Shown: in pieces, positions 21,741-43,659 of the stretch
Layout of the letters: each line of letters starts with the position of its first letter
Position numbering within the stretch: the first letter of the stretch is position 1
DNA from: Desulfatiglandales bacterium
GTDB taxonomy: Bacteria; Desulfobacterota; DSM-4660; Desulfatiglandales; Desulfatiglandaceae
Assembly: GCA_963666345.1 (NCBI GenBank)
Contig: OY762721.1
Location: forward strand, 2,560,001 to 2,624,000
Length of the DNA stretch: 64,000 bases
Direction: 5' to 3'
Translations under genes and position numbers: made by a program
Notes under the pieces: model-generated
What the model was told of the DNA's origin: nothing
The model's input: only the letters and a program-made list of their open reading frames with translations
Database searches by the model: none

Positions 21741-21760
21741 ACATTTACTAAGGTTAAAGC

Positions 21761-23104: not shown

Positions 23105-23139
23105 GGACGAGCCTCACGGAATTAAGCAGGAGACGATAA

Positions 23140-23250
23140 TTGACCCGATTGATTCCTTTCAATCTCCGACCCCTTTGGGTGAGCGTTCGCTTCGCCGATA
23201 TCCGATTCGACGGCGTGAATATTGATGCGAGTCTTACCATGGCTGTCTGA
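23140..23250 (+). pseudogene. Collapsed remnant of a second wecE copy
   Basis: LTRLIPFNLRPLWVSVRFADIRFDGVNIDASL.. matches WecE start (LISFNRP) joined to internal RFVDIRPDTLNIDETL; upstream AAGCAGGAG..GATAATTG matches 14283-14301. Confidence 0.72.
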
Positions 23251-23323
23251 AACGAAAATGGAAACGCAGCTTTAGAAAACCTTTTTAGAAAACCTTGAAG
23301 AATGACGGAATCTACCGATAGAC
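23232..23323 (+). repeat. Right copy of direct repeat flanking the cassette
   Basis: Matches 15455-15533; carries an internal TTTAGAAAACCT duplication. Confidence 0.9.
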
Positions 23324-23356
23324 TTGGCTTGCATCTGCCGGGGATAGTTTAATAAT

Positions 23357-25032: not shown

Positions 25033-26532
25033 TTATCGGATCTTTTTAGCCGGTTTTTTTGCCATACGCCATATGAAAAAGGCCGTAAGGATTATAAAAC
25101 CGCAGCTTATCGGCCTTTGAAGCACTATGAATGGGTTGTTCCTGCTCATTATGAGGGTCTGCTGGAAGGACAGCTCAAGCATGGGGGTCAGCACAAAACC
25201 TATGATAAAGGTTATGAAGCTTATCTTCAGCTTTTTCAGGAGAAAACCGAGAAAGGCGAAACCGAACATCATATATACGTTGAATATGCTGTTGTTGGCC
25301 ATATAGGCGCCGGTCATACATACGAACATTATGATGGGAAAGACTATGGCGCTTGATATGCTGAGGGCTTTTGCAAAGAATCTGAGCCCTATATTTCCGA
25401 TCAGAAGGTTTAAGACGTTGGCAATAAGCATTGCACCGTAGATGCCGTAGATGAGCTGTCCGTTTTCTTCAAAAAGAAGAGGTCCTGGTGTTACCCCGTG
25501 AATGATGAAAGCCCCGATAAGCATTGCAGATGCGACGTTTCCCGGAATACCCAGTGTGAAAAGGGGAATGAGATTGGCCCCGATGACCGCGTTATTGGCT
25601 GCCTCCGCCGCCGCTACGCCCTCTATGTTTCCTTTTCCAAATGAATCGGGGTCCTTGCTTGCCCTTTTGGCCGCGCCATAGCCTAGAAAGCTGGCGATGG
25701 TGGCCCCCAGTCCCGGAAGGGCGCCAAGGGCTGTCCCTATAAGACTGGAGCGGAAAATCGTTTTACCGCAGCTGCGGTATTCGGCCCAGGAGATGGTACG
25801 GTCGGCCTTGCTTATGTTTTTATCGAAAATGAGGCCGTTATCGCCTTGCTGTGCGTCATGCTTCATTTCTTCCAAACGAACTATTATTTCACTCAGCGCC
25901 AGAAGACCTATTCCCACCGTGATAACACTTATGCCCTCTTCAAGTTCCATGATGTCAAAGGCAAGACGAGGCATGGCGGACACTGGATCAAGGCCCACAC
26001 AGGCAAATGTTATACCCAGACATGCCCCTATGAGTCCTTTCAGCAGGGAGTCCGCTTCAAGACCGGCAATCATGGCAAGGGCGAAGACGATAACGGCGAA
26101 GATCTCCGGCGGCCCCATTTTAAGAGCGAGTGTGGCTATCGGCGCTGCAACGAAAATGAGCACAAGATCGGAAAAGGTGTCTCCTGTTACCGACGCATAA
26201 AGGCTTATCTTAAGAGCCTTTTCTCCCTTTCCCTGTTTTGCAAGCGGGTATCCGTCAAAGCAGGTAGCCGCGGCCTCCGGAGTCCCGGGGGTATTTAAGA
26301 GGATCGCAGCGATCGAGCCCCCAAAGGAGGCGCCTTTGTTGAGACCGATAAGAAAGGCCACTGCGATCAACGGGCCCATATAATATGTTATAGGCACCAT
26401 CAAGGCGATTGCCATGGGGCCGTTAAGACCCGGCAGGGCGCCCACGATGACACCTATGCCTACCCCCAGGGCAAGATATATTATGTTCCCCAGAGTAAAG
26501 GCGTCTGCAAAACCGGCGAGAATAGCTTCCAT
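25033..26532 (-). CDS. tctA: Tripartite tricarboxylate transporter, large permease
   Basis: GALPGL, ILLNTPGTP, DGYPLAKQG, EAANNA, TLGIPG. Confidence 0.95.
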   Translation of the reverse strand: MEAILAGFADAFTLGNIIYLALGVGIGVIVGALPGLNGPMAIALMVPITYYMGPLIAVAFLIGLNKGASFGGSIAAILLNTPGTPEAAATCFDGYPLAKQGKGEKALKISLYASVTGDTFSDLVLIFVAAPIATLALKMGPPEIFAVIVFALAMIAGLEADSLLKGLIGACLGITFACVGLDPVSAMPRLAFDIMELEEGISVITVGIGLLALSEIIVRLEEMKHDAQQGDNGLIFDKNISKADRTISWAEYRSCGKTIFRSSLIGTALGALPGLGATIASFLGYGAAKRASKDPDSFGKGNIEGVAAAEAANNAVIGANLIPLFTLGIPGNVASAMLIGAFIIHGVTPGPLLFEENGQLIYGIYGAMLIANVLNLLIGNIGLRFFAKALSISSAIVFPIIMFVCMTGAYMANNSIFNVYMMFGFAFLGFLLKKLKISFITFIIGFVLTPMLELSFQQTLIMSRNNPFIVLQRPISCGFIILTAFFIWRMAKKPAKKIR

Positions 26533-26570
26533 AGATTAAAGTAACTCCAAGTTTCCAAAAATGTCACAAG

Positions 26571-27032
26571 TTAAGGCAAAGGCATACTGAGGCCGTACCA
26601 GAGTGCCGCATACATGATAAGGGGTCCGGCTACGGCAACTGCCGATATCAGCGCAGGCCTTCTTTCTCCGCAGACAACCATCCCGGCTGCAATGGTAACG
26701 ATGCCCCCTGCGATATAGCCGAGAAATGAGAACACCAGGGTGCCGCATGCGAAAAGTCCAGCGTATTTTGCAAGGTGAATCCATGAGCCCCTGTTAATGG
26801 GGGCAGGGTCTTCATCTTCCTTTTTCCATGTGCCCGGCAGGTTTTTCAGGAGTAACAGCAGGGAAAGTATCCCCGTTACCGCCATGGCCGTAATCGGTAG
26901 TACATCGGATGGGGCGCCGAATTCTCCCGCCTCGGGGCACCATGCCGGGATAATAAAGAAAATCATTGCAATACTGAAACCGATAAGCATCAGGGCAACG
27001 ATAAAATCAGTCTTACGCATACCTTTCCTCAT
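26571..27032 (-). CDS. tctB: Tripartite tricarboxylate transporter, small permease
   Basis: 4-5 TM, ends in LSMPLP, lies between tctC and tctA. Confidence 0.85.
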   Translation of the reverse strand: MRKGMRKTDFIVALMLIGFSIAMIFFIIPAWCPEAGEFGAPSDVLPITAMAVTGILSLLLLLKNLPGTWKKEDEDPAPINRGSWIHLAKYAGLFACGTLVFSFLGYIAGGIVTIAAGMVVCGERRPALISAVAVAGPLIMYAALWYGLSMPLP

Positions 27033-27045
27033 TTTATGGGGAATG

Positions 27046-27083
27046 AAAGGGGGAGGGGATGGTTTTTCCTCTCCCCTTTTTTT
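27046..27083 (-). terminator. Hairpin between tctC and tctB (attenuator or mRNA stabiliser)
   Basis: AAAGGGGGAGGGGA..TTCCTCTCCCCTTTT inverted repeat. Confidence 0.6.
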
Positions 27084-27086
27084 CGG

Positions 27087-28031
27087 TTATTTCCCAAGCA
27101 GTTTCTTAAAACCTGCTGCGTCTTTTTCTATTTGCATCAGGGTATCGGCAGGTCCTTTGAAGACCTTGAGCCAGTGGACCTTACTCTGAATGAGATCGGT
27201 CAGTTCCTTGTCCTGGGCTGCCTTTTGCATGGCGCCGGAAAGTTTTTCCAGAATGCCTTTGTCAACCCCTTTGGGTGTGTAAACAAAGCAGTAGTTGACA
27301 AAATCAATATCATAGCCGAGTGATTTGAGTGTAGGTATCTCAGGAAAGTCCACAAGGCCTTTACTTGAAAGGGCTGCGAGGATTTTTGCCTTCCCGGCCT
27401 TTACATATGAATAGTGAATTCCTCCGCTGAAGCCGAAGTCCACATGTTTTCCCATAACGGCACTTATGACGGCCGCGCCACCCTTTGTGGGAACCGGTTG
27501 AATCGTAAGCCCTTCTTTGGAACTGATGGCTTTGGTAAAAATCTTGTCGATCGGTATAAGGGATGCGTAGTTTACAAAACCATTCTTTTTCCCATAATCA
27601 ATCATTTCCCGCCATGTGGAAAACGGCGCATCAGCGTAAGTCACGAATGCCTCCTGAGACTGACAGATGCTTCCCACAACATCAAAGTCCTGGTAAGTGA
27701 AAGGGGCCTTTTTTGCAAAATAGGGATTAAAGGTCAGTGCGGTTATCATGTTGATGCCTATGGTATAGCCGTCCGGTTTGGCCATCTTCAGGCTCTTTGC
27801 ACCCAGTGAGCCGCCTGCGCCCCCCTTGTTTTCCACTATCACCGGCTGTCCCAGTTCGTCAGCCATATGCTTTGCAAGTATCCGTGCGATAGTATCGACA
27901 TTGCCACCCGCCCTGAAGGCCGCAATCATCTTTATAGGCCTTTGAGGGTATTCGGCAAAACAGGTTGATGAAAAGGAAAGACATAAAATAAAAAAAGATG
28001 TCAAGAGGGTTAAGGTTCCGATTTTTTTCAT
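27087..28031 (-). CDS. tctC: Tripartite tricarboxylate transporter substrate-binding protein (Bug/TctC)
   Basis: Signal peptide, YPQRPI, AGGNVD..AR, VENKGGAGG, KPDGYT, PTLKSLG. Confidence 0.93.
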   Translation of the reverse strand: MKKIGTLTLLTSFFILCLSFSSTCFAEYPQRPIKMIAAFRAGGNVDTIARILAKHMADELGQPVIVENKGGAGGSLGAKSLKMAKPDGYTIGINMITALTFNPYFAKKAPFTYQDFDVVGSICQSQEAFVTYADAPFSTWREMIDYGKKNGFVNYASLIPIDKIFTKAISSKEGLTIQPVPTKGGAAVISAVMGKHVDFGFSGGIHYSYVKAGKAKILAALSSKGLVDFPEIPTLKSLGYDIDFVNYCFVYTPKGVDKGILEKLSGAMQKAAQDKELTDLIQSKVHWLKVFKGPADTLMQIEKDAAGFKKLLGK

Positions 28032-28062
28032 GATGGGTTCCTCCTTGAAATATAAAAAGTGT

Positions 28063-28878
28063 TTAATTTTCTACCCCTGCCAGACGGTAGGCGCCCTCAG
28101 GATGTGACGTATCGCCACAAGCGCCCCTACGGGTCATTTCTGTAAAATAGATCTCGTCCCACTCCACGTTTGCAAGATTTACATGGGTGCCGAATTTGCT
28201 TACCATCCAGAAGAGTATCTGGGTCTTGTACGACTTGGTTACATCCGGAAGATACTGAACCGGAAGTTCGAACATGAGCTTTTCAGCAGGTATCTTTTGC
28301 ATTAATTCCTCTATTACATCTTCGCGGATGTCTCCATGGAACAGCTCATGGGCCTCCAGCAGGACGCACTTGCATCCAGCCTCCATGCATAGTTCGCAGT
28401 CGGCGATAATTTCATCCCCGCTCATAACGCCCTCTTTGCGGCCAACCTCTCCCATCACCACAAGTCCGAAATCATTGACCGCCTTTTTTATGGCCGCCCT
28501 TTTGTCGCCTGGTGAAAGTTTTATGAGATTGTCGCTAACTTCGATCCCTGAAAAGCCGAGATCAATTGATTCCTGAAGGTATTTTTCAAAGTTGCCCTGT
28601 ACAAGGGCAAGCTCGGCAAAAAGACCGCCTGGGAAGACAAAGATCCCGGCGTCCTTGTAGGCATTGATCTTTTTTTCGAGGTAGGGCTTTGGTGTAACTC
28701 CGGCAATGGATCCGGCTATCTTGGCCTCGTCCACGTAGAGACCCTGGCTTTCGATCAGGTCCAGCTGCATGTTAAAGGGGAGACCCCAGTCGATCATCAT
28801 GGTCTGCCCCTTGGTTCTTGGTTTGTCTTCCCTTTCGGGCATCGGGATGCTTCCATAGGCAAATGTAAGTTCACTCAT
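28063..28878 (-). CDS. comA: ComA-family (phosphosulfolactate synthase-like) protein, divergent
   Basis: KPRTKGQTMMIDWGL, FPGG, IEVSD, GEVGRK, VNLANV, E.TRRG..GDT. Confidence 0.85.
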   Translation of the reverse strand: MSELTFAYGSIPMPEREDKPRTKGQTMMIDWGLPFNMQLDLIESQGLYVDEAKIAGSIAGVTPKPYLEKKINAYKDAGIFVFPGGLFAELALVQGNFEKYLQESIDLGFSGIEVSDNLIKLSPGDKRAAIKKAVNDFGLVVMGEVGRKEGVMSGDEIIADCELCMEAGCKCVLLEAHELFHGDIREDVIEELMQKIPAEKLMFELPVQYLPDVTKSYKTQILFWMVSKFGTHVNLANVEWDEIYFTEMTRRGACGDTSHPEGAYRLAGVEN

Positions 28879-29671
28879 TCATATTCTCCTTAAGATCCTG
28901 TTTCTTTTTAACTGGTTGTGGGTAATAGCCCAGGTTGTATGAGATTTCTCCTGCCGCACCTCTCAGCTCACCGGCTAGGGTTTCAATTTGATCCCCGAGC
29001 ACCTTTACCGTGAGGCCTGACAGACTGATGGCCCCGAGCGGTCTGCCTTCCGGGCCCAGGATAGGAACACCGAGGCCGGATTGACCCAGAAGTGCTTCTT
29101 CCTCGGAAATGGAATAGCCCCGCTCTTTAGTCGTATCAAGTTCCTTCCTGATATCATTGACGTCGGTAATGGTGCGTGGTGTATAGGGTAGAGGGACAAG
29201 AGAATCCAGGTATCCATCCAGTTCCTCCTTTGAGACCGAAGAGAGAAAGGCCTTTCCCAGGGCCGTGCAGTATGCGGGAACTCGAGGGCCAAGCCGGCTC
29301 GGCTGCTCTGCGTGAGCCATCGGGGTGGATTGAAGGGATACGAGTATGGAGTCCCTATCCCAGATCCCTATCCTGCAAACAACACCGGCGTCATTTGCCA
29401 GCCGGCAGGCTATCTCTCTTCCTTCCCTGTTTATCCTCAGGTTCTTTACGACAATTCCACCCAGCTCAATATATTTGGCTGCCAGCATGTAATGGGCCTT
29501 TTTTTTGTCATAATCGAGATAGCCTGTTTCCCGCATGGTTGTCATGATTCCGTAGGCTGTTGCCTTGGCAAGTCCGAGTTCTTTTGAAACCTCCGCTAGA
29601 GTTAGTACCGGCTTGTTTGAGCTGAAAAGGGATAAAATGGAAAATGCGCGGCTGACGGATTGTATTGGCAT
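28871..29671 (-). CDS. IclR-family regulator
   Basis: IQSVSRAFSIL HTH, PAYCTALGKA, RGYS, AISLSG. Confidence 0.93.
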   Translation of the reverse strand: MPIQSVSRAFSILSLFSSNKPVLTLAEVSKELGLAKATAYGIMTTMRETGYLDYDKKKAHYMLAAKYIELGGIVVKNLRINREGREIACRLANDAGVVCRIGIWDRDSILVSLQSTPMAHAEQPSRLGPRVPAYCTALGKAFLSSVSKEELDGYLDSLVPLPYTPRTITDVNDIRKELDTTKERGYSISEEEALLGQSGLGVPILGPEGRPLGAISLSGLTVKVLGDQIETLAGELRGAAGEISYNLGYYPQPVKKKQDLKENMNE

Positions 29672-29702
29672 GAGTCCTCCTTATAATGTCGAATGGTATA
29701 CG

Positions 29703-29731
29703 ATTATATTTTATGCAAAAAGTCATGTCAA
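29703..29731 (-). promoter_or_regulatory. Consensus sigma70 promoter for iclR-comA-tctCBA
   Basis: Minus strand TTGACA-N17-TATAAT. Confidence 0.8.
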
Positions 29732-29829
29732 ACAAAAATCCAATTTTCCGTTAATATCATGTAATATATTGAAACAACTATTATTATAGCTAAATAAATG
29801 GAATAATACTCTTGATTTGAAAGAGTTTC

Positions 29830-29859
29830 TTGACAGCAGAAAGAAAAAATAAATAGAAT
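29830..29859 (+). promoter_or_regulatory. Sigma70 promoter for sulfatase-ASST
   Basis: TTGACA-N18-TAGAAT. Confidence 0.65.
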
Positions 29860-29923
29860 ATCATTCGATAATGTTTAATACCAAATTGAAATATGACTGA
29901 ATTAAGAAAGGAGTATATCGCAA

Positions 29924-31339
29924 ATGAACCTTATTTTGGTTATCATCGATTCTCTCAGAAAAGATCATGTGGGTGCCTATGGCAATGAATGGATACATAC
30001 CCCTAATCTGGACAGCTTTTTTTCAGAGAGCATGAGGTTTACCAGTGCCTATCCTGAATCGCTTCCCACACTTCCGATGCGGAGGTCGATACATACCGGC
30101 ATCAGGACATTTCCCTTCAGAGGCTGGAAGGGACAGCCCACAAGCTATCCTCTTACCACAATGTTCGGGTCCAAGGTCTGGATCCCCGGCTGGACCGCCA
30201 TACCGTGGGAGCAGAAGACCCTTGCCGAGCATCTCAATGAATACAATTACGATTCCGGCTATTTTACAGACTGTTTTCATCAGGACTATGCGGGAATGAA
30301 CTTTCACCGGGGATTTCACGCCTGGGAGATGATCCGGGGGCAGGAGTGGGACTGCTGGAAGACCGATCCCGGAATGGCAAAAAGCGACATCGCGGCAAAG
30401 CATTTCACAAAGGGCATGGAATGGGAAAAGCGCAAGACATGGGAGCTTACCAGGTATCTTACAAACAACAGCCATCGTCAGAGCGAAGAGGACTATTTCC
30501 CGGCCCAGGTGTTCAGGGCCGCCACCCGCTGGATTGAAAAAAACAGGGACGCTGAGAATATCTTCGCGTGTGTCGACTGCTTTGATCCTCATGAACCTTG
30601 GGATCCCCCGAAACATTACAGGGAGCTTTATGATCCGGGATACAAGGGAACGGAGGTGATAATGCCGCTGTATTATGACAAGGCGGACAAGTACCTTACA
30701 CCTGAGGAGCTTAACCATATGAAGGCCATGTATGCGGGCGAATGCAGCATGGTGGATCGCTGGTTCGGTTTCTTTATGGATACGGTAAGACTCCTGGGGC
30801 TTGACAAAAATTCCATTATAGTAGTTACAAGTGATCACGGCCACCAGCTGGGGGAAAAGAACATGACGGGAAAGCTTCCCTGGGGGTTAATGCCCTGTCT
30901 GCTTGACCTGGTTATGGGGATACGCCATCCGCAAGGCGAAGGTGCTGGAAAGACCTGTGACGCCTATGCCATGAATCATGATATCATGCCTACCGTTCTT
31001 TCCATGATGGGTATTGATGTACCTGATCAGTGCGAGGGTGAGAACCTGTGGCCTGTCGCCATGGGGAAGGAAAACTCCAAGCGCGATCATGTGAGCACTA
31101 TTTTCAAGGATTACCTATGGACCGCGAATGATTCCTGGGCCCTGATTACAAGAAACAACAAGACCGAGATGGAACTCTACGACATTAAAAAGGACCCTGA
31201 ATATTTAAAAGACGTGTCGGCTGATCACCCGGAGGTGGTTGAACAGATGTGGAAAACCCTTCTTGAGGATGCAGGAGGTGACATCCCGATACCTGAAGGT
31301 GCAAGTGAGGCGATACTCGAAAAGGGCGGTATGAAGTAG
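29924..31339 (+). CDS. Sulfatase-like hydrolase (alkaline phosphatase superfamily) with Thr at the nucleophile position
   Basis: IIDSLRKD, PTLPMRRSIHTG, DPHEPWDPP, TSDHG; no signal peptide. Confidence 0.85.
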   Translation: MNLILVIIDSLRKDHVGAYGNEWIHTPNLDSFFSESMRFTSAYPESLPTLPMRRSIHTGIRTFPFRGWKGQPTSYPLTTMFGSKVWIPGWTAIPWEQKTLAEHLNEYNYDSGYFTDCFHQDYAGMNFHRGFHAWEMIRGQEWDCWKTDPGMAKSDIAAKHFTKGMEWEKRKTWELTRYLTNNSHRQSEEDYFPAQVFRAATRWIEKNRDAENIFACVDCFDPHEPWDPPKHYRELYDPGYKGTEVIMPLYYDKADKYLTPEELNHMKAMYAGECSMVDRWFGFFMDTVRLLGLDKNSIIVVTSDHGHQLGEKNMTGKLPWGLMPCLLDLVMGIRHPQGEGAGKTCDAYAMNHDIMPTVLSMMGIDVPDQCEGENLWPVAMGKENSKRDHVSTIFKDYLWTANDSWALITRNNKTEMELYDIKKDPEYLKDVSADHPEVVEQMWKTLLEDAGGDIPIPEGASEAILEKGGMK

Positions 31340-31363
31340 GGACCTTTTAAAGGGGCAGCACTT

Positions 31364-32608
31364 ATGGAACTGAATTTTTTCCCCATATTACTTCTGGGAA
31401 TACTCTGGTTTATAGGAACCCGTTTCTGGCCTTGTGTCCATGAAACGGGTGTAACCCTTTATGACAGGGAAAGGGCCTTTGATGGTTTTACACTCTGGGC
31501 TCCGCTTGAGGCGGATAACAGCGGGATAGAGCCCTGGCAGAGACCCGGCATGGTTTATCTCATGAATATGAATGGGGATTGTGTCCATTCATGGAATACC
31601 CCCTTTCCTGTCTGTTATGCGCGCCTTGAAAAAGACGGACATATTGTCACGGGGATGAGAAGCGGTGATGCCTCGGATCCGGAAAGGCCCGGCATAGGCG
31701 GATACCCGATGGGGGGGGCCACCGGATGGCTCTGGGAGCTTGATTGGGAAGGAAACACCCTTTTCAGCCATTTTGATCCATGCATGCACCATGATTTCCG
31801 CAGGCTTGAGAATGGAAATTACATCTATCTCGGATGGGAAAAGGTGCCTGCTGATCTTGCCTTAAGCATAAGAGGCGGATTTTCAGGCAGCGAACATGCA
31901 GGAGGGGTTATCTTCAGCGACTATATCAGGGAAATAGATCCTTCAGGAAATATCACGTGGGAGTGGCATGCCACGGGTCACATGGACACTGATACGGATA
32001 TAATCGGGCCCATCCATCCAAGGAAGGAGTGGAGCCATATGAACAACCTGGCCCCCATGGAGGACGGCAACATCATGTCAAGTTCCAGATTCCTGGATAT
32101 GGCCTTCATAATAGAAAGGGCCACAGGGAGGATTGTCTGGCGCTGGGGAAATGCGGCCTTCCTTGACAGGAAAAGCGGCCAGGTCCTGACAAGGTTCAAT
32201 GAAAAGACCCTGGGAGGTCCTCATGACTTTTCCGTGATCGAAAGGGGGCTTCCAGGCGAGGGTCATATGCTTGGATATGACAATGGTATGTATACCGGGG
32301 TTTCAAGGGCACTTGAGGTGGATATCGACTCAGGGGAGATCGTTTGGCAGAGCACGGATCACACATACCGGCACGGCAGGCATTCCTTTTCAGCCTATAT
32401 AAGCAGTGCAAACAGGCTGTCCAACGGAAACACCCTTATCTGCGAGGGACAGAACGGCATCATATGCGAACTTACCCCTGATAGGCAGATCGTATGGCAG
32501 TGGGTAAGGCCCGAGCCGAGCAGAACTTCCACGGTATGGGCCATATTCAGGTCCTACCGCTTTGCGCCTGATTACTGCCCTCAGCTGAAAGACCTTTGTC
32601 TTGGATAA
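31364..32608 (+). CDS. Arylsulfate sulfotransferase (ASST)-like beta-propeller
   Basis: N-terminal hydrophobic segment, HHDF, WSHMN, PHD, YDNG, SANRLSNGNTLICEG. Confidence 0.82.
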   Translation: MELNFFPILLLGILWFIGTRFWPCVHETGVTLYDRERAFDGFTLWAPLEADNSGIEPWQRPGMVYLMNMNGDCVHSWNTPFPVCYARLEKDGHIVTGMRSGDASDPERPGIGGYPMGGATGWLWELDWEGNTLFSHFDPCMHHDFRRLENGNYIYLGWEKVPADLALSIRGGFSGSEHAGGVIFSDYIREIDPSGNITWEWHATGHMDTDTDIIGPIHPRKEWSHMNNLAPMEDGNIMSSSRFLDMAFIIERATGRIVWRWGNAAFLDRKSGQVLTRFNEKTLGGPHDFSVIERGLPGEGHMLGYDNGMYTGVSRALEVDIDSGEIVWQSTDHTYRHGRHSFSAYISSANRLSNGNTLICEGQNGIICELTPDRQIVWQWVRPEPSRTSTVWAIFRSYRFAPDYCPQLKDLCLG

Positions 32609-32632
32609 AAAAGAATGATTCGCTTTCTTTAA

Positions 32633-32671
32633 AAAGGCCCCCGCCTGATTGATCATCAGGCGGGGGCCTTT
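32633..32671. terminator. Bidirectional intrinsic terminator
   Basis: AAAGGCCCCCGCCTGAT-TGATC-ATCAGGCGGGGGCCTTT. Confidence 0.9.
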
Positions 32672-32681
32672 CATGCTTATA

Positions 32682-33281
32682 TTAGGACATGGAACGGGAA
32701 TAGACCTCGATACCCCTTTCAAAGCAGTCCATGTTTGCCTTGATAAAGGCCTTTTTGGTCTTTGTCTCTATAGCCTTTTTGAAGTCTGAGTCATTCATGG
32801 GAAGCTGCCCTGATGCGCAAAGCGCCCCGACCATCACCATGTTTACTCCCAGGGGGTTCCCGGCCGCCCTGGCCTCTTCCATGGCGTCAAAGGCCACGAC
32901 TTTACCCACCTTTGATCTGATGTAATCTATCGCCCCTTTTGTTTCAGGATATTTCCCCTGGCCGATGGCCACGGTAAAGGGGGGAATGGCTGATTTTGAC
33001 ATTATCACAAGGGTCTTGCAGTTCATCTTTTCCAGCGCCCTCATAGCCTCAAGAGGCTCGAACGCAAGCGCTATGTCCACCTCGCCCTCCGAGATAATGG
33101 AGCTGCAGGCGGGCCCCACAACGGCGGTCGACTCTACTACTCCGCCCCTTTGGGCCATACCGTGCGTCTCGCTCATATTGACCGGCACACCAGCTATGAT
33201 TGCCGCCTCTCCAACCAGTTTGGTGGCGAGGATGTTACCCTGTCCCCCGACACCTACGAAATATACTCTCTTTGTTTCCAT
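32682..33281 (-). CDS. iorB: Indolepyruvate:ferredoxin oxidoreductase beta subunit
   Basis: GVGGQG, SETHGMAQRGGVV, FEPLEA.R, NMVMVGA. Confidence 0.93.
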   Translation of the reverse strand: METKRVYFVGVGGQGNILATKLVGEAAIIAGVPVNMSETHGMAQRGGVVESTAVVGPACSSIISEGEVDIALAFEPLEAMRALEKMNCKTLVIMSKSAIPPFTVAIGQGKYPETKGAIDYIRSKVGKVVAFDAMEEARAAGNPLGVNMVMVGALCASGQLPMNDSDFKKAIETKTKKAFIKANMDCFERGIEVYSRSMS

Positions 33282-35140: not shown

Positions 35141-35281
35141 GCATGATCCATCCTTTCTATATAAATTTACAGTAAAATAAGCTCCTGCCGGTGCATGAAA
35201 AAGGGGCACAACAGAAGCTGAGTTGAAAATCAAAAGATCCAACTGACGGCCTTGATCGAGCAGGCCTTAAATGAAGTTTTT

Positions 35282-36070
35282 TCAGGGTCTATAGGCGCCG
35301 TTTAGAAACTGCGGTTCTATGTGATAACCCATGTAGTTTGATATTTCGCCTGCCGTATCCATTACCCTCTGCGCAAGGGTATGAAACTTCTCCCCGCTTA
35401 TCTTTTTCGGGTCTCCGTTAAGGCTTATAGCGCCAACCACCTCTCCATCGATTCCGAATATGGGAGCGCCTATGCTGTCAAGATGCATCATGAGTTCCTG
35501 GTGAACCACCGAGTAGCCTCTGTCCCTGGTTTCGGCAAGTTCCGCAAGTATAAGATCACGCTCAGATATGGTCTTCGGTGTGTATTTTATAAGTTCCACC
35601 CTTTTAAGATGTTGATCAATCTCCTGGTCAGACATAAAAGCGAGAACCGCCCTTCCCATGGAAGAACAGAAGGCGGGAACGCTCGGACCCATGTAGGGGG
35701 CAGCCGACCCGCTTTCAAGGGGCAGCGTGCTCATGGTGACTATGACGGCATCCCTGTGAAAGACTCCCAGCCTGCCTATGAGGCCGGTTTCCCGCGCAAG
35801 GTAGCTGACCGGTATGGAGGCCTTCTGATTGAGCTCAAAGGTGCCTTCATATATTGTGCCGAGCACGTGGAGCCTTATGCCGAGGCGGTATTCCCGGCTC
35901 CTGGGTGCCTTTTTAAGAAAACCGGCAACCTCGAGTGCCTGTACAATACCGTGAGCCGTGCCTATGGGAAGCTTAACCGCTTTTGCAATGTCACTGATGC
36001 GCCACTGGGGTCGTGCATAGGAAAAAAGTGAAAGTATATCGGACGCCCTTTGTATTGACTGGTTGCTCAT
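35282..36070 (-). CDS. IclR-family regulator (paralog of 28871-29671)
   Basis: NQSIQRASDILSLFS, PAFCSSMGRA, RGYS; RBS GGAGG before ATG 36070. Confidence 0.92.
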   Translation of the reverse strand: MSNQSIQRASDILSLFSYARPQWRISDIAKAVKLPIGTAHGIVQALEVAGFLKKAPRSREYRLGIRLHVLGTIYEGTFELNQKASIPVSYLARETGLIGRLGVFHRDAVIVTMSTLPLESGSAAPYMGPSVPAFCSSMGRAVLAFMSDQEIDQHLKRVELIKYTPKTISERDLILAELAETRDRGYSVVHQELMMHLDSIGAPIFGIDGEVVGAISLNGDPKKISGEKFHTLAQRVMDTAGEISNYMGYHIEPQFLNGAYRP

Positions 36071-36080
36071 ATGACCTCCT

Positions 36081-36230
36081 TTCGAATATGTCGAACAATA
36101 ATTAAAATAAAGAAAAAATAAAGCCATGTCAACCGATAATAACAAGAAAAATAGCCAAAAACCCTTGACAGGTGTGAATTACAGCTATAATATTTTGTAA
36201 ATTATAAATACATTTCGACATAGTCGAAAT
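36081..36230. promoter_or_regulatory. Divergent promoter region with two TTCGA-N5-TCGAA palindromes (putative IclR operators)
   Basis: 36081-36095 TTCGAatatgTCGAA; 36212-36230 ATTTCGACataGTCGAAAT; TTGACA at 36165 (+) and 36127-36132 (-). Confidence 0.7.
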
Positions 36231-36307
36231 TATAGGTTTTACGATCGGCTGCATATGCAGCCGATTCTTTTATCGAAGAGAGACGGATTTTAGGAGGACC
36301 ACTCTGG

Positions 36308-38935
36308 ATGCAATGGTTAAGCGAGTTAGAGAGGATCGTAGGGCCGGATAATTTGTTGTCGGAAAAGGTCGACTGTCTTGGCTATTCAAGGGACATGTCC
36401 ATTCATGAAGGGGTGCCTGAGGCGGTTGTTTTTGCGCAGAACACGGAGCAGGTCTCTCAGGTGGTCTCGCTTGCAAATCAAGAAGGGATACCGGTGACGG
36501 CAAGAGGTGCAGGAACATCGGTCACAGGTGCCTCTCTTGCCTCAAAAGGAGGCATAATCCTTAACCTGGTCAAGATGAACAGAATAATTGAGATAAACAG
36601 GACAGACTGTTACGCAGTGGTTGAACCTGGCGTAATCTGTGATGATCTCAACAGGGAGCTTGCCCCTGCCCATTTTTATCCGCCTGACCCGGGATCGGCA
36701 CCTGTTGCGACTATAGGAGGCATGGTAAGCACAAACGCCTCAGGCGTGCGGGCGGTAAAGTACGGAACTGCAAGGGACTACATCAAGGCCATGAAGGTGG
36801 TTCTTGCAGACGGCAGGGTCATAAACACCGGGACCAAGGCCCCTAAATCATCGGCGGGATATGATCTTAACAGGCTTTTTTCAACCTCGGAGGGGACTCT
36901 CGGCATCATCACGGAGATTACCGCCAAGATTCTGCCGGTGCCTGAATACGCCGCCTTTGCCAAGCTTTCCTTTCCTTCCATAGTGGAGGCCGGTGCAGTC
37001 GTAGAGGAGATAATAAGAAAGGGTATCCCGATATCTACCTGTGAAATCCTTGACGGTGTTTCAATTGAAGCGGTCAAGGAGGCCATGGGGCTTAAGATCC
37101 CGGGAAATGTCAGCGCACTTGTGTTTGCCGAGATTGACGGGGCCCGTGCCGCAGTAAAGAGTCAAATGGAAGAAATGAATTCCATTTTTAGAGAAAAAGG
37201 GGGGATTGAAATAGAGTGGTCGGACGACCAGGAAAGACGGGCCGAGATATGGTCGGCCCGTCATGGACTTGTTTCATCTCTTTCCCGATTGCACAGGGGC
37301 TCCAGGCAGGTGCCGATTACAGAGGACTTCGGCGTGCCCATGAGCAGGATCCCTGAAACCATAGATGCGATACAGGAAATCGGGCGAAGATACGGGGTCG
37401 ATATCGCCACCTTCGGTCATATAGGGGACGGAAACCTTCACGCCGTTCTTTTAATGGATATAAGAGATAAGGATGAATGGGAGACCATAAGAAAGATATC
37501 TGAGGAATTCATTGATCTGACCCTTCGGCTTGAAGGGACACTTACGGCGGAGCATGGCATAGGCATGGCCAAATCACCCTACATAGAAAGAGAACTGAAC
37601 GGCGCACTGGATGTCATGCAGACGGTAAAGAGCGCGCTTGACCCGAAAAATATCCTCAATCCGGGTAAAATGGGTTTTAATGACTCCATAGGTTATATCT
37701 ATGACAGGTGCGGCTCAAGGGACCTTGAAGGTGGAATAAGGGAGGAAAGCAGCCTGGGGGAATCAGCGGACGAAGACGTCCTTGCATGTACCCAGTGCGG
37801 TTTCTGCAGCCTTGTCTGTCCCACCTATTCCGAGACCCGGATTGAAACCATGAACGCGAGAGGAAGAAACACCCTTGCGTTTGATCTTTTAAGCGGCAGG
37901 GCGGAGTTGAGCGAGCAGATGGTAAATCGCTTCTATCAGTGCACCATGTGCGATGCATGTGCCTCATCATGCCCGGCGGGTGTAAAGACCAGCAGGATAG
38001 TACAGGCGGTCCGGAAAAAGTCATTCGCCTCGGGGTTTGCCCCGGAAGGTATCAGGATGGCAAACAGATCCGTGGAGGATAACAGAAATCCCTTTATGCA
38101 GCCGAGGGACGAAAGGGACGAATGCTTTATCGATCCGCCAGCGGCACCTGAGGGTGCCGAGGTTTTATACTGGCCCGGCTGCGTCAGCTCATACCAGGAA
38201 GAGGACGTCGTGCCTGCAACGGCGGAGCTTCTGGACAGGGCGGGGATCGCATGGACCGCACTTGGCAATGAAGAGGGATGCTGCGGATATCTCGCATATG
38301 TAAGCGGTGACATGGAGCTTTTTGATGAGCTCATGAAGGAAAACCTGGCGGCCTTTAAGAGATCAAAGGTGAAAACCCTGGTTACGACATGCCCCGGCTG
38401 CTACAGGACCTTCAAGGACCTGTACGGAAAGGATAAAGGGGGCCTGGAGGTACTTCATTCCACGGAGTATTTCAGCCGTCTTATTCAGGAGGGCAGGCTG
38501 CGGTTTTCAGAAGGCGGCACACCTCTCAGGGCTGTTTATCATGATCCTTGTGATCTCGGCAGGCATATGGGGGTCTATGAAGCACCCAGGGAGATTCTCA
38601 GGTCCATGAAGGATGTTGAGCTGCTGGAGTTCAGCAGAAATCGTGAAAACGCCAGATGCTGCGGGGCTGGAGGGGGCATGAAAGGTCATGACCTTAATCT
38701 GTCTCTTGATGTGGCCTCCAGGCATATCCTTGAGGCCGCCGAAATGGGTGCCGACGCCATAGTGAGTGCGTGCGGCACGTGCAAGAAGAATTTCCAGCAC
38801 GCAACGGTGCGGGTGAGAAAAAAAGGGCTGCTTTCCAGGAGGATCGCAGTCTATGACGTTATGGAACTGATGGCCCAAAGGATGGTTGTCTCCTCCTGCG
38901 GGGCATTGGATAAGGCCGCCAGGGAGGCCGCCTAG
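36308..38935 (+). CDS. FAD-dependent 2-hydroxyacid dehydrogenase fused to Fe-S/CCG domains (GlcD-GlcF / Dld-type)
   Basis: RGAGTS, PPDPGS, EGTLGIITE, GHIGDGNLH, AEHGIG; two CxxCxxCxxxC motifs; CCG motifs. Confidence 0.92.
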   Translation: MQWLSELERIVGPDNLLSEKVDCLGYSRDMSIHEGVPEAVVFAQNTEQVSQVVSLANQEGIPVTARGAGTSVTGASLASKGGIILNLVKMNRIIEINRTDCYAVVEPGVICDDLNRELAPAHFYPPDPGSAPVATIGGMVSTNASGVRAVKYGTARDYIKAMKVVLADGRVINTGTKAPKSSAGYDLNRLFSTSEGTLGIITEITAKILPVPEYAAFAKLSFPSIVEAGAVVEEIIRKGIPISTCEILDGVSIEAVKEAMGLKIPGNVSALVFAEIDGARAAVKSQMEEMNSIFREKGGIEIEWSDDQERRAEIWSARHGLVSSLSRLHRGSRQVPITEDFGVPMSRIPETIDAIQEIGRRYGVDIATFGHIGDGNLHAVLLMDIRDKDEWETIRKISEEFIDLTLRLEGTLTAEHGIGMAKSPYIERELNGALDVMQTVKSALDPKNILNPGKMGFNDSIGYIYDRCGSRDLEGGIREESSLGESADEDVLACTQCGFCSLVCPTYSETRIETMNARGRNTLAFDLLSGRAELSEQMVNRFYQCTMCDACASSCPAGVKTSRIVQAVRKKSFASGFAPEGIRMANRSVEDNRNPFMQPRDERDECFIDPPAAPEGAEVLYWPGCVSSYQEEDVVPATAELLDRAGIAWTALGNEEGCCGYLAYVSGDMELFDELMKENLAAFKRSKVKTLVTTCPGCYRTFKDLYGKDKGGLEVLHSTEYFSRLIQEGRLRFSEGGTPLRAVYHDPCDLGRHMGVYEAPREILRSMKDVELLEFSRNRENARCCGAGGGMKGHDLNLSLDVASRHILEAAEMGADAIVSACGTCKKNFQHATVRVRKKGLLSRRIAVYDVMELMAQRMVVSSCGALDKAAREAA

Positions 38936-39222
38936 GTCATGGAAGGTGTTATTATGAAAAATAAGAGGAAAAAACCGGGACTGCGAGCCTGGGCAGGATT
39001 GTGGCAGTATCGGTGTCAGACAGAATAGGTTGGGAAACACCATCCTGACGGTACTTGTAGTTCAGGTCTGCCTCATGTCTCTGGCCGTCAGGATAGTCGG
39101 AGGCGAGGCCGCCCGGTAATGACAAGAAAACTTGAAAGTGCGGACGAAGGTGATTATTAGAGGTTGATCTTTTACCTACAGATGAATATCGGAAACGAAA
39201 AAATATCTTGGAGTCTAGGAAT

Positions 39223-41679
39223 ATGAAATCAAAAAAAAATAAAGGTGATGGCGGTCCTTCCATGATCAGGGAAACGCCGGGGCTGGAGATCGATTTTGAT
39301 GCTATAACAATGCAGTTTCAAGCCGCCTATGAAGAGGGGCGCGGATTTCTGTTCGAGCATGAGGTTTACGGCCTGCTGAAGACCTCCGGGGCGGAAACCC
39401 CTCCCAAGTCGAAACTGCTCCTTAAGGGAAGCCGACCTTCGGACCGGGATCTGATTGAGCTTTCGGGCGAATATGTGGTTCTCAAGATCGTGTCCCCCAT
39501 GATTATTCATAAGACGGAGGTGGGGGGGGTCAGGGTTGTTGAAAACAGGTCTGAAAAGATCCGTTCGGCATGGCGAAGGATGATGCATGAGGTACCTGAA
39601 AATTATTCATCATGGATTGAAAAGAACAGGGGTTCAGAGCCTGCGGCCTACAGGGGGTTAAGCTCCGAGACCCTTCTTTCGGCTATCTCAAGCGATATCA
39701 AGGGGGTGCTGATGGTTCAGTACATGCCCCCTGATTCAGAGGCCTTCGGCAATGAACTGATAGTGGGTATAAGGCGAACCAGGGAATTCGGTATGGTCAT
39801 AAGTGCCGGACTGGGGGGGACCGACACCGAGCTTTATGCCGATCGGTTCAGGAAGGGGCAGGCCATAGTTGCGGCCTCCACCGAGCTTACAGACATCGAT
39901 ACCTTTTTTGAGATATTCAAGAGGACTATTTCCTATAAAAAACTTGCCGGGCTTACCAGGGGTCAGAGGCGGATTGTCACTGATGAGCAACTGGTAGAAT
40001 GTTTTTCCTCTTTTATCGCAATGGCCAATTTTTTCTCCCCGACAAATGAAAGGGCACCCTTTGTAATTGATGAGCTTGAGATAAACCCTTTTGCCTTTTC
40101 AGATTTTTTGATGGTGCCCCTTGACGGGCTTTGCAGATTTTCGGAAAAGGGGAAAAAGGGCGCTTCAAGGCCTATTGAAAAGATAGGCCGTCTTCTTCAT
40201 CCGGGATCCATAGGGATTGTCGGGGTTTCGGCGAAAAGGATGAATTTCGGCCGGATAATACTCAAAAATATCCTCGCAAACGGTTTTGATCCACAAAAGG
40301 TCTATATAATAAAACCGGGCACGGATCAGATAGACGGCATAAGGTGTGTGCCCGACCTGAAATCTCTTGAACAGAGGCTCGATCTGTTTGTGGTTGCAGT
40401 CGATGCAAGCAAACTGCCTCAGCTTGTTGAAGAGGTGATAGATCTGAAGGCCGCGGAATCGGTCATGCTTATCCCGGGGGGGCTGGGCGAGAAAAAGGGG
40501 AGTGAGGAAAGGGCGAAAAGGCTCATAAAAAAGATAGGTGATTCTCACAAAACTCCCGACGGCGGTCCGGTATTTCTGGGGGCCAATTGCCTGGGGGTCA
40601 TATCGCATCCAGGCTCATTTGACACCCTTTTTATCCCTGAGGAAAAGCTGCCCAAGGACAGAAAATCCAGAAAGCAGAGGGCTGCGTTTGTCAGCCAGAG
40701 CGGTGCCTTCATGATAACCAGGCTGAGTAAAAAACCGTGTCTTGATCCCTCCTATGTCATTTCAGTGGGAAATCAGACAGACCTCACCCTGGCGGATATC
40801 GTCATCTACCTAAAGGATCTGGATGATATCGATGTCATAGCGGTTTATGCGGAAGGTTTCAAGGATCTCGACGGCCTTGCCTTTGCGCGCGCCGTCAGGC
40901 AGGCGATACTCAGGGGCAAGTACGTCGTCTTTTACAAGGCGGGTCGTACCCCCGAGGGCAAGACCGCCACTTCAGGGCACACTGCATCCCTTGCCGGTGA
41001 TTACATGATCTGTGAATCTCTTATCATGCAGGCAGGCGCGATCGTTGCCCAGACATTTAGCCAGTTTGAATCCCTTTTTCTTCTGGCCGAGCGGCTTCAT
41101 GGGAAGAAAATAAGAGGAAACCGGATGGCGGCCGTAAGCGGGGCCGGTTTTGAGGCCGTGGGTATGGCGGACAGCATATATTCGGATGACTATGACATGC
41201 AGTTAGGAGCCTTTGCCGGCGAAACCGTGAGAACAATCGAGGGCATACTGGAGGAAAATTCCCTCCACACCCTGGTAGACGTAAGAAACCCTCTGGACAT
41301 AAACCCCACTGCCAGTGATGAGGTGCATGTCAGGGTAGTGGAATCCCTTATCGGGGACCCCAATGTCGATTGCGTCATAGTGGGCCTGGATCCCCTGTCG
41401 CCGGTAACCTGTACCCTGGCCGGTGACACGAATGGTTTCTCTCTTGATTCGGAAAAAGGGACTGCAAGGCTGATGCCCGATCTCGCATCAAGGAGCGAAA
41501 AGCCTATAGTGGGAGTCGTGGATGGGGGAAAACGGTATGATCCCCTGGTGGAGGCCCTTGAGAAGACGGGTCTTCCCATGTTCAGGTCCTCCGATATGGC
41601 CGTGTCGGCCCTGGCAAGATACATAAAAGGAAGATTGAGGGCTGAAAAAATCCGCCTCAGAAACGGAATAGACAGATAA
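39223..41679 (+). CDS. ADP-forming acetate/acyl-CoA ligase (ATP-grasp N-terminal, CoA-binding C-terminal); start uncertain
   Basis: LKIVSP.IIHKTEVGGV, ELEINP, GANCLG, SQSGA, SGHTASLAG (phospho-His), NPLD. Confidence 0.9.
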   Translation: MKSKKNKGDGGPSMIRETPGLEIDFDAITMQFQAAYEEGRGFLFEHEVYGLLKTSGAETPPKSKLLLKGSRPSDRDLIELSGEYVVLKIVSPMIIHKTEVGGVRVVENRSEKIRSAWRRMMHEVPENYSSWIEKNRGSEPAAYRGLSSETLLSAISSDIKGVLMVQYMPPDSEAFGNELIVGIRRTREFGMVISAGLGGTDTELYADRFRKGQAIVAASTELTDIDTFFEIFKRTISYKKLAGLTRGQRRIVTDEQLVECFSSFIAMANFFSPTNERAPFVIDELEINPFAFSDFLMVPLDGLCRFSEKGKKGASRPIEKIGRLLHPGSIGIVGVSAKRMNFGRIILKNILANGFDPQKVYIIKPGTDQIDGIRCVPDLKSLEQRLDLFVVAVDASKLPQLVEEVIDLKAAESVMLIPGGLGEKKGSEERAKRLIKKIGDSHKTPDGGPVFLGANCLGVISHPGSFDTLFIPEEKLPKDRKSRKQRAAFVSQSGAFMITRLSKKPCLDPSYVISVGNQTDLTLADIVIYLKDLDDIDVIAVYAEGFKDLDGLAFARAVRQAILRGKYVVFYKAGRTPEGKTATSGHTASLAGDYMICESLIMQAGAIVAQTFSQFESLFLLAERLHGKKIRGNRMAAVSGAGFEAVGMADSIYSDDYDMQLGAFAGETVRTIEGILEENSLHTLVDVRNPLDINPTASDEVHVRVVESLIGDPNVDCVIVGLDPLSPVTCTLAGDTNGFSLDSEKGTARLMPDLASRSEKPIVGVVDGGKRYDPLVEALEKTGLPMFRSSDMAVSALARYIKGRLRAEKIRLRNGIDR

Positions 41680-43484: not shown

Positions 43485-43659
43485 ATGTGTAACTCCCGAT
43501 ATCATGCGGTTTTTTTGTTTAAAATGATAACATGGTTGGAGATTGCCATGTAACAAAGGGCAAGTCAACCGCGGCATCCCTGATCCACCATCAAGGCGTG
43601 GTCCGTTCCTGTTCTGTTCAGAGCCGGACTGCCTCGAATCCATTGGTCCTCGTGCCGAT

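Follow-up and report, generated by a model that had tools for sequence, protein, structure and literature searches.

Between positions 25033 and 41679 of a 64,000-nucleotide stretch of the genome of a Desulfatiglandales bacterium (assembly GCA_963666345.1, contig OY762721.1, positions 2,560,001 to 2,624,000 of the forward strand; hereafter the window), two pairs of divergently transcribed operons stand side by side, and the question raised by this locus is whether they encode one pathway or two. An earlier note on this DNA had proposed a single pathway, in which a 2-hydroxyacid bearing a sulfonate or sulfate group (sulfolactate or an aryl-lactate sulfate) would be imported by the transporter TctABC and desulfurylated by the products of the first pair (unit 1), its skeleton then being oxidised by those of the second pair (unit 2) and its sulfur respired. 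Organosulfur acids represent a large flux of carbon and sulfur in the sea and in sediments, and to our knowledge the known desulfonation and desulfation enzymes leave part of the marine organosulfur flux unexplained. The answer that we somewhat favour is that the locus holds two side-by-side, separately inherited catabolic modules, each controlled by an IclR regulator and each with a mechanism of its own, which is proposed below. The genome, a single contig of 4.16 Mb, encodes DsrA (574 bits, above cut-off) and thus belongs to a sulfate or sulfite reducer, in which sulfite, if released, could be respired.

The twelve genes named in the earlier note are all intact, as judged from the calling of open reading frames (ORFs), Pfam and NCBIfam. 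Together with the two promoter regions they are, in the order of the window:

25033-26532, minus strand: TctA, large membrane subunit of the tripartite tricarboxylate transporter (TTT) importer, unit 1 (PF01970, 7.8e-143)
26571-27032, minus strand: TctB, small membrane subunit, unit 1 (PF07331, 7.3e-10)
27087-28031, minus strand: TctC, periplasmic solute-binding protein with signal peptide, unit 1 (PF03401, 2.8e-45)
28063-28878, minus strand: ComA-like TIM-barrel protein of a non-canonical clade, predicted lyase (PF02679, 4.4e-54)
28871-29671, minus strand: regulator IclR1, whose gene opens the comA-tct operon (PF09339 and PF01614)
29672-29923, no strand: divergent promoter region of unit 1, 252 bp, AT-rich, with TTGACA and TATAAT-like hexamers
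29924-31339, plus strand: cytoplasmic sulfatase-fold hydrolase of the alkaline-phosphatase superfamily, predicted nucleophile Thr49 (PF00884, 1.1e-24)
31364-32608, plus strand: short beta-propeller of 414 amino acids (aa) resembling arylsulfate sulfotransferase (ASST) (PF05935, 1.1e-18; PF14269, 5.8e-9)
32682-33281, minus strand: IorB, beta subunit of an indolepyruvate-type 2-oxoacid:ferredoxin oxidoreductase (IOR), unit 2 (PF01558, 2.6e-35)
33281-35242, minus strand: IorA, alpha subunit, with thiamine pyrophosphate and two [4Fe-4S] sites, unit 2 (TIGR03336, 774.6 bits)
35282-36145, minus strand: IclR2 regulator, unit 2 (PF09339 and PF01614)
36146-36307, no strand: divergent promoter region of unit 2, containing the palindrome ATTTCGACATAGTCGAAAT
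36308-38935, plus strand: GlcD-like FAD dehydrogenase fused to a 4Fe-4S domain and two CCG domains (GlcF/HdrD-like; hereafter GlcD-CCG), 875 aa (PF01565, PF02913, PF13183, two PF02754)
39208-41679, plus strand: fused ADP-forming acyl-CoA synthetase (ACS) of the NDP-forming ligase family, 823 aa (PF13549, ATP-grasp_5; PF13380, CoA_binding_2; PF13607, Succ_CoA_lig)

In unit 1, iclR1-comA-tctC-tctB-tctA (29671 to 25033, minus strand), where the ORFs of iclR1 and comA overlap by 8 bp, faces the sulfatase and ASST-like genes (29924 to 32608, plus strand). In unit 2, iclR2-iorA-iorB (36145 to 32682, minus strand) faces glcD/CCG-acs (36308 to 41679, plus strand), and the two units lie tail to tail at 32608/32682 with a gap of 73 bp between them. 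The layout described before, two divergons with a paralogous IclR in each, is therefore correct on the ORF positions and on the 34% identity of IclR1 and IclR2. The adjacent genes for TctA, TctB and TctC identify a TTT importer by PF01970, PF07331 and PF03401, and the TctC translation displays a visible hydrophobic leader at its N-terminus. The other family labels hold as regards the presence of the genes; the names "sulfatase" and "ComA" need qualifying, since the two proteins fall outside the groups that these names define. NCBIfam left TctABC, the ASST-like protein and a neighbouring ORF of 498 aa without a specific name. As stated before, neither suyAB, xsc, islAB nor cuyA is found at the locus, none appearing among the 50 window ORFs that were scanned with Pfam. 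The GC content of the region (0.503 against 0.480 for the genome) is at the 85th percentile among windows of the same size, and a horizontal acquisition detected by base composition was rejected on this unremarkable value.

The evidence that bears most directly on the unity of the locus comes from other genomes. An alignment of 18 ComA-like homologues was used to retrieve 73 loci from contigs of one genome per species, with flanks of up to 10 kb, and these loci were compared with all the window proteins by tblastn. None of the 73 contains IorA, IorB, GlcD-CCG or ACS. Conversely, no unit-1 gene, Ior, GlcDF or IclR gene is present at any of the ten ACS loci that were fetched. When whole genomes are compared, the 200 others sampled from the order include three with the ComA-like gene (G192, G075 and G153), twelve with ACS and none with both. 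Since their markers never co-occur, either at the locus or at the genome level, units 1 and 2 have the appearance of separately inherited modules. The adjacency alone had suggested a pathway, which comparative genomics does not support; it had also been anticipated that the joint system would fall if the two units never co-occurred elsewhere, and the outcome went against it at both levels.

Several observations count against the reading as two independent modules. They adjoin in this genome, and IclR1 and IclR2 are reciprocal best matches within it, the next best match being at 27% identity. IclR1, IclR2 and the regulators of ComA-containing and Ior-containing modules form one clade (ultrafast bootstrap 98, SH-aLRT 97) apart from the other IclR paralogues of the genome, and this clade also holds regulators of modules with ASST-like, metallo-beta-lactamase (MBL), Thr-type sulfatase, tripartite ATP-independent periplasmic (TRAP) importer and IorAB genes. 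In the free tree, IclR2 falls outside the Ior subclade and groups, at 89/90, with the regulators of modules that contain ComA, ASST or Thr-sulfatase genes. ACS and GlcD-CCG are without close syntenic counterparts, the four-gene module 2 being seen only here. A single pathway is also favoured by the aromatic flavour of the IOR, of the ASST-like protein and of the PcaR-type IclR (TIGR02431, 8.8e-40), by the presence of DsrA, and by the O-demethylase-like corrinoid set and full ASST that stand beside a ComA-like gene in one other genome (locus L004, see below). Besides the lack of co-occurrence, however, the two units are transcribed convergently from separate promoters, and the placement of IclR2 is not significant, as its transfer to the Ior subclade was not rejected by the approximately unbiased (AU) test (p = 0.41). 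IclR2 as a regulator of a "sulfo-module", a suggestion of a small tree, was weakened by wider sampling and was not upheld by this test. A common IclR operator was also discarded as a candidate: the two promoter regions share promoter-like hexamers and a single 8-mer half-site, TTCGACAT, which makes no convincing operator, the number of shared 8-mers expected by chance being about one by our own, uncomputed estimate. A search for sequencing runs that contain positions 27001-37000 of the window gave 12 of DNA or unspecified type and none of RNA. Taken together, these data make a single pathway rather unlikely, though in this organism the units may be linked in regulation or function.

With the two-module reading retained, unit 1 can be considered by itself. 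Neighbour families of the ComA-like genes were named by Pfam in 15 loci and then counted across loci by tblastn with seed proteins, in the 68 loci whose ComA-like hit covers at least 50% of the query. TctC is found in 34 of these loci and TctA in 27, and a TRAP/TAXI importer in 12. The esterase-type neighbours are PF00884 sulfatases (19 loci), PF12706 MBL proteins (18), alkylsulfatase-like MBL proteins with PF00753 and PF14863 (10) and ASST-like propellers (10), and the regulators are IclR (13) and MarR (11). A DUF3604 protein is present in 11 loci; it has about 767 aa, adjoins the ComA-like gene in L014, L016, L017, L043, L044, L049-L051, L062 and L065, and often stands in the place of the MBL or sulfatase partner. 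The gene order iclR-comA-tctCBA is kept in metagenome-assembled genomes (MAGs) of Desulfobacterales (L001, L002, L005-L008, L011 and L015), and the window TctA is 63-70% identical to the TctA of the modules L001, L002, L005 and L013. In the nearest relatives, whose ComA-like protein is 59-67% identical, iclR-comA-tctCBA is followed by two MBL genes and an ASST-like gene, and the alphaproteobacterial and gammaproteobacterial loci combine MarR, TctCBA, the ComA-like protein, a cytoplasmic sulfatase of about 480 aa and a PF12706 MBL. Modules of this ComA-like, importer and sulfoesterase type were found in Desulfobacterales, Rhodospirillales, Rhodobacteraceae and other groups.

From this neighbourhood comparison, unit 1 is a local variant of a recurrent module composed of a ComA-like protein, a carboxylate importer and a sulfoesterase-type enzyme, in which the sulfoesterase slot is filled elsewhere by Cys-type sulfatases or MBL-type sulfatases. 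The neighbourhood search suggested in the earlier note, for comA with tctABC and a sulfatase, thus finds the association again and finds it without iorAB. The description of unit 1 as an organosulfur system stands in so far as the unit is coherent and conserved and has an organosulfur flavour, with importers and three sulfatase-type families beside the ComA-like genes; the identities of a formylglycine sulfatase and of a phosphosulfolactate synthase do not stand. Sulfolactate clusters with a TTT importer are known from Roseovarius, where SlcHFG is found with SuyAB, Xsc or CuyA. Like unit 1, these clusters combine a TTT importer, cytoplasmic organosulfur enzymes and a local regulator; in contrast, no SuyAB, SlcC/ComC, Xsc or CuyA is encoded in the window and the candidate lyase is of the ComA family. 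One of the ComA-like modules, in a MAG of Desulfobacula sp. (L004, 1-17002), has a TRAP importer instead of the TTT importer, a corrinoid, O-demethylase-like trio of UroD-like, B12-binding and pterin-binding methyltransferase genes, and a full-length ASST of 631 aa with thioredoxin and thioredoxin reductase, a gene set suggesting that its substrates may be aromatic acids with methoxyl or sulfate groups. The literature search on the module yielded no experimental paper and a single in silico remark: a TTT paralogue of SAR11 is flanked by two "phosphosulfolactate synthases" and a conversion of phosphosulfolactate to phosphoenolpyruvate is proposed (PMC11796062). Unit 1 is a variant of a recurrent and experimentally untouched module, whose two central enzymes both fall outside the families after which they are named.

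The first of these enzymes, the ComA-like protein, belongs to PF02679 (183.9 bits against a cut-off of 25.2) and is matched by the ComA of M. jannaschii (1qwg) at an E-value of 7.5e-30 over residues 23-257. Its K148 aligns with the second Lys of the GKK of 1qwg and, together with several acidic residues (Glu/Asp) of ComA that are also kept, is unchanged in all 18 close homologues aligned; we take K148 to be the counterpart of Lys137, the proposed general acid of the M. jannaschii enzyme. The ComA equivalog is not reached (TIGR03849, 154.4 bits against a cut-off of 280), and the canonical motifs, taken as those common to the two solved ComA proteins (M. jannaschii 1qwg and B. subtilis YitD, 1u83), are all altered. 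DKG is DWG and SDG is SDN in the window protein; the Gly/Lys-rich E-S-G-x-G loop after the second Glu (ESGKGKG or ESGTGG) is reduced to ELFHG by a deletion of 6-8 residues, and an insertion of 11 residues stands in the place of QKxQQ.

These changes are a property of a large group. An exhaustive search of the ComA family returned 864 cluster representatives at E <= 1e-3, and among the 119 full-length ones that were analysed, 57 have the short loop plus the insertion and 22 the canonical motifs. In a FastTree of the 119 representatives, for which the trait columns were kept in the alignment, the window protein lies in a clade of 58 rows, 56 of them of the short-loop type, that is split with an SH-like support of 99 from the side holding a canonical clade of 28 rows (own support 97); the protein is therefore placed outside the canonical clade. 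Our data indicate that it is not an orthologue of phosphosulfolactate synthase (EC 4.4.1.19). It would have kept the proton-transfer machinery and lost three Lys-bearing elements that could bind phosphate or sulfonate, so that its substrate is probably less anionic than phosphosulfolactate.

The membership in PF02679, the conserved catalytic Lys and the phosphoesterase-like neighbour could also be explained if the gene were biosynthetic, making phosphosulfolactate or sulfolactate as for coenzyme M or the spore sulfolactate of Bacillus, with the sulfatase-fold protein acting as the ComB phosphatase. The low equivalog score and the position outside the canonical clade argue against this explanation, and so does the genetic context: the window protein shares with ComA (1qwg, 1u83) the Pfam family, the fold, the aligned Lys and several Glu/Asp residues, whereas its gene shares an operon with those of an importer and of a regulator, IclR1, and lies near esterase genes, no ComB, ComC or ComDE family member being present among the 50 window ORFs scanned. 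The distribution of the gene is also rare and patchy, with three occurrences in the 200 other genomes of the order. A biosynthetic role thus seems most improbable, and the catabolic role of unit 1 is retained in what follows.

The second central enzyme, encoded at 29924-31339, possesses the PF00884 fold (87.8 bits) with its metal ligands, D9, D304, H305 and K317 each being kept in 117 or more of the 120 family members. No signal peptide is found and the Pfam match starts at residue 2. The motif T49-L-P-M-R53-x4-T-G aligns with the C-x-P-x-R-x4-T-G of the carrageenan sulfatase 6prm and with the SPICVPAR of the partner sulfatases at other ComA-like loci. According to PMC12421950, S1 sulfatases are defined by a formylglycine derived from the Cys or Ser of C/S-x-P/A-x-R. 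Threonine occupies this position in the window protein, which implies that no formylglycine can be formed. The window protein has in common with the S1 sulfatases and phosphonate monoester hydrolases compared (6prm, 2w8s and the Enterococcus EfAS; PMC12421950) the PF00884 fold, the Asp/Asp-His ligands, the Lys and the x-P-x-R-x4-T-G spacing, and it has His as the fourth ligand, as in the phosphonate monoester hydrolase/EfAS group. It differs from S1 sulfatases by Thr in place of Cys or Ser, by Ser in place of the second metal-site Asp, by its cytoplasmic location and by a genome without maturase, the anSME maturase having not been found there (best TIGR03942 match 50.4 bits against a cut-off of 349.45).

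The threonine is not a sign of decay, as it is retained in 118 of 118 aligned homologues, in which D9, R12, D14, R53, H223, D304, H305 and K317 are also conserved; this alignment was made from the 120 best homologues (44-60% identity, Bacteria and Asgard archaea), 118 of which could be aligned at Thr49. The sulfatase-fold search itself returned 5903 hits at E <= 1e-3, a count that probably takes in sulfatases generally. In the protein atlas, only generic "sulfatase" cluster names are given to the Thr-type family, and such annotations are probably wrong or incomplete, since formylglycine chemistry is impossible with Thr. A literature search on Thr-type members of the sulfatase fold found no paper. 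Five further Thr-type paralogues (33-55% identity) are encoded in the genome, so that all six copies carry Thr, and no Cys-type copy was found among the sulfatase-fold paralogues. Each of the paralogues adjoins a solute importer (TTT in three cases, TRAP in one and ABC in one) together with hydroxyacid or sugar-acid enzymes, and in this genome the family behaves as an accessory that generally goes with clusters for the uptake of organic acids.

Four of these paralogues (L074, L075, L079 and L080, at G000:C1:3695000-3712000, 3656000-3672000, 2768000-2781000 and 4069000-4082000) each stand beside a TTT, TRAP or ABC importer, with enzymes that include a HAD type II dehalogenase-like protein, a HisD-like dehydrogenase, SDR/3HCDH proteins, a HI0933-like flavoprotein and an aminotransferase with Zn-ADH. 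The fifth (L076, G000:C1:790000-806000, outside the window) lies with a TTT importer, a split UxaA-family dehydratase (a SAF-like ORF of 92 aa and a GD_AH subunit of 390 aa), a malate racemase of the LarAH5 family (542 bits, above cut-off), a 2-hydroxy-3-oxopropionate-reductase-like gene and a GntR regulator. The subunit architecture of this split dehydratase is that of the sulfolactate sulfo-lyase SuyAB, and if the genome degrades sulfolactate, L076 would be a better candidate than the window.

What the Thr49 enzyme hydrolyses can be read in two ways. The motif scan of the ComA-like loci identified 24 sulfatase signatures in 19 loci, of which 22 are of the Cys type and two of the Thr type (L009, whose protein is 60% identical to that of the window, and L050). 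This shared syntenic slot supports the reading in which the Thr49 enzyme takes over the function of the Cys-type sulfatase and needs no maturation. On the other hand, Thr or Ser nucleophiles mark phosphoryl transfer in the alkaline-phosphatase superfamily, and the nucleophile itself therefore lends support to a phosphoesterase that may act on phosphate and not on sulfate. Carried further, module 1 would not be a sulfur system at all: the Thr enzyme would be one of the phosphatases, phosphodiesterases or phosphomutases, the substrate of the ComA-like protein would be a phosphorylated or other non-sulfur 2-substituted carboxylate, and the names would be family labels. The constancy of Thr49 in place of the formylglycine precursor across the family, the weak match to PF01663 (phosphodiesterase) on the window protein, which is also precomputed on most homologues, the loss of the canonical ComA motifs and the clustering of Thr-type paralogues with sugar-acid and hydroxyacid enzymes, once with a HAD hydrolase, are all in agreement with this explanation. 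The locus is also without the two MBL genes of at least eight Desulfobacterales relatives, with no homologue in the genome at E 1e-6, for which reason the chemistry of the window may differ from that of the relatives. Against a non-sulfur module, the same slot is held elsewhere by bona fide Cys-type C-x-P-x-R sulfatases and also by alkylsulfatase-like MBL proteins and ASST-like proteins, that is by three unrelated families of sulfate-ester enzymes, and the ASST-like protein keeps the His and Arg residues of canonical ASST. We consider a non-sulfur module 1 to be quite unlikely, and sulfur chemistry is kept as the preferred reading of unit 1.

The ASST-like protein (31364-32608) matches the PF05935 propeller weakly, at 67.8 bits. 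H142, H143, N227, R242, H287, D306, N307, S314 and R315 are invariant across eight short forms and the canonical ASST of 631 aa from L004. The His/His, Arg, His and Arg columns of the propeller (H142, H143, R242, H287 and R315) are thus those of the canonical periplasmic ASST (PF05935, about 600 aa, with an Ig-like N-domain). Unlike the canonical enzyme, the window protein has 414 aa, a weak Pfam score and no match to the Ig-like N-domain PF17425, so the full-length architecture is absent, and its short relatives look cytoplasmic from the alignment. A sulfuryl transfer would agree with these invariant residues. Of the eight short ORFs, seven start without an N-terminal hydrophobic extension, as judged from the alignment alone, which suggests that the short forms would be cytoplasmic; the window copy alone has a hydrophobic N-terminus of 20 residues, and no alternative in-frame start is available. 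Two ASST-like paralogues, 55% identical, are encoded elsewhere in the genome without this extension (L077 and L078, G000:C1:1576000-1592000 and 1494000-1505000), one beside an IclR regulator and a TRAP importer and the other beside a GntR regulator.

On these elements the following scheme can be proposed for unit 1, in which the reaction directions, the release of sulfur and the substrate class are what we infer from the proteins. TctC would bind an anionic carboxylate carrying a sulfate-ester and/or a sulfonate group, which TctCBA would import. In the cytoplasm, the Thr49 esterase, independent of formylglycine, would take off an O-linked sulfate (or phosphate), and the ASST-like propeller could move or remove an aryl or enol sulfate group. 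The ComA-like enzyme would perform a Lys/Mg-assisted proton transfer at C2, coupled to an addition or elimination at C3 as in ComA and enolase-type enzymes; run as a lyase, it would release sulfite or sulfate and leave an enol or 2-oxo acid. The Dsr system could then use the sulfite or sulfate released. As for the substrate, the ASST-like gene, the PcaR-type IclR, the MarR regulators and the O-demethylase set of L004 hint at a sulfated phenolic acid, and the chemistry of ComA and the contexts of the Thr-esterase paralogues hint at a small aliphatic sulfo or sulfated acid. Sulfolactate is not especially favoured, because Thr49 bars formylglycine and the ComA-like protein is not an orthologue of phosphosulfolactate synthase. 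In its broadest form, the hypothesis is that the non-canonical ComA clade consists of catabolic C-S (or C-O-S) lyases acting on imported sulfonated or sulfated carboxylates; in anaerobes, with a hitherto unrecognised class of maturation-independent Thr sulfatases, they would form an undescribed route by which the sulfate reducers of marine sediments obtain a 2-oxoacid together with sulfite or sulfate, the IOR/ligase module possibly taking the carbon skeleton in this genome. We regard this generalisation as a tentative possibility. Should the ComA relative prove to be a lyase, sulfonates would also be broken down by a family that is known only to make them.

Unit 2 looks by comparison like an ordinary oxidation module. 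IorA is above the IOR_alpha equivalog cut-off (TIGR03336, 774.6 bits against 650.9), and the adjacent IorB is recognised by the IOR_beta models with 176-189 bits, the cut-offs of which (205.8 and 238) it does not reach; a second IorA of the genome is 58.6% identical to that of the window. The ACS scores 218 bits with TIGR02717, below cut-off. Its counterparts (50-59% identity) in the twelve other genomes of the order all belong to another family, and none was found in the 96 genomes of the window's own family. For GlcD-CCG, no match in the 200 genomes exceeds 48% identity, which is the level of the genome's own second copy (C1:3824576-3827152). Regulators related to IclR2 (35-46% identical) are present in 14 of the 200 other genomes, and 13 of their loci were fetched. 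IorA and IorB stand beside the regulator in five of them (L160, L161, L163, L168 and L169), with a GlcD-type dehydrogenase in addition in L160 and L161, and a POR-gamma/IorB-like ORF is found in L166. ASST-like genes occur in two of the 13 loci (L158 and L167) and TRAP importers in two, one of which (L164) has a Thr-type sulfatase-fold gene. An IclR-IorAB(-GlcD) core thus recurs without any ComA-like gene.

The enzyme logic previously attributed to unit 2 is borne out by Pfam and NCBIfam, the domains of a dehydrogenase, a 2-oxoacid:ferredoxin oxidoreductase and an ADP-forming ligase being all present. GlcD-CCG would convert a 2-hydroxyacid to the 2-oxoacid, which IorAB would decarboxylate to the acyl-CoA with reduction of ferredoxin, and the ligase would turn the thioester into the acid with formation of ATP. 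The luo operon of Desulfovibrio vulgaris (PMC4481167) offers a precedent, with the D-lactate dehydrogenase DVU3027-28, a pyruvate:ferredoxin oxidoreductase (PFOR) and formation of ATP from acetyl-CoA. A D-2-hydroxyacid dehydrogenase (GlcD-like with Fe-S/CCG), an oxidoreductase and substrate-level ATP formation are therefore features of both systems. Unit 2 differs by a dehydrogenase in one fused protein, by an IOR in place of PFOR, by an ADP-forming synthetase in place of Pta-Ack, by the lack of a permease in the unit and by the presence of an IclR regulator. By analogy, module 2 is probably a luo-like operon for a bulky (aryl or branched) 2-hydroxyacid. A GC-rich gap of 272 bp (38936-39207) separates glcD-CCG from the TTG start assigned to ACS.

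Other genes of the window surround the two modules. At 20691-24853, after a low-GC cluster of glycosyltransferase and methyltransferase genes, lie a gene resembling that of 3-dehydroquinate synthase and one for a class II DAHP synthase, whose 610.8 bits with TIGR01358 come close to the cut-off of 614.7 without reaching it. The ORF of 498 aa that follows the DAHP synthase has no Pfam or NCBIfam match, and all these genes are convergent on tctA. Directly after ACS, on the opposite strand (41751-43703), a DUF6178 protein of 650 aa (436 bits) is encoded, followed by a ferritin and a LexA-like repressor; these genes have no evident link to units 1 and 2. Finally, the segment 58664-63739 encodes an HdrA/NfnB-like fusion of 1414 aa, in which two pyridine-nucleotide-disulfide-oxidoreductase modules are joined to several 4Fe-4S domains; an MvhD/FlpD-like gene comes next.

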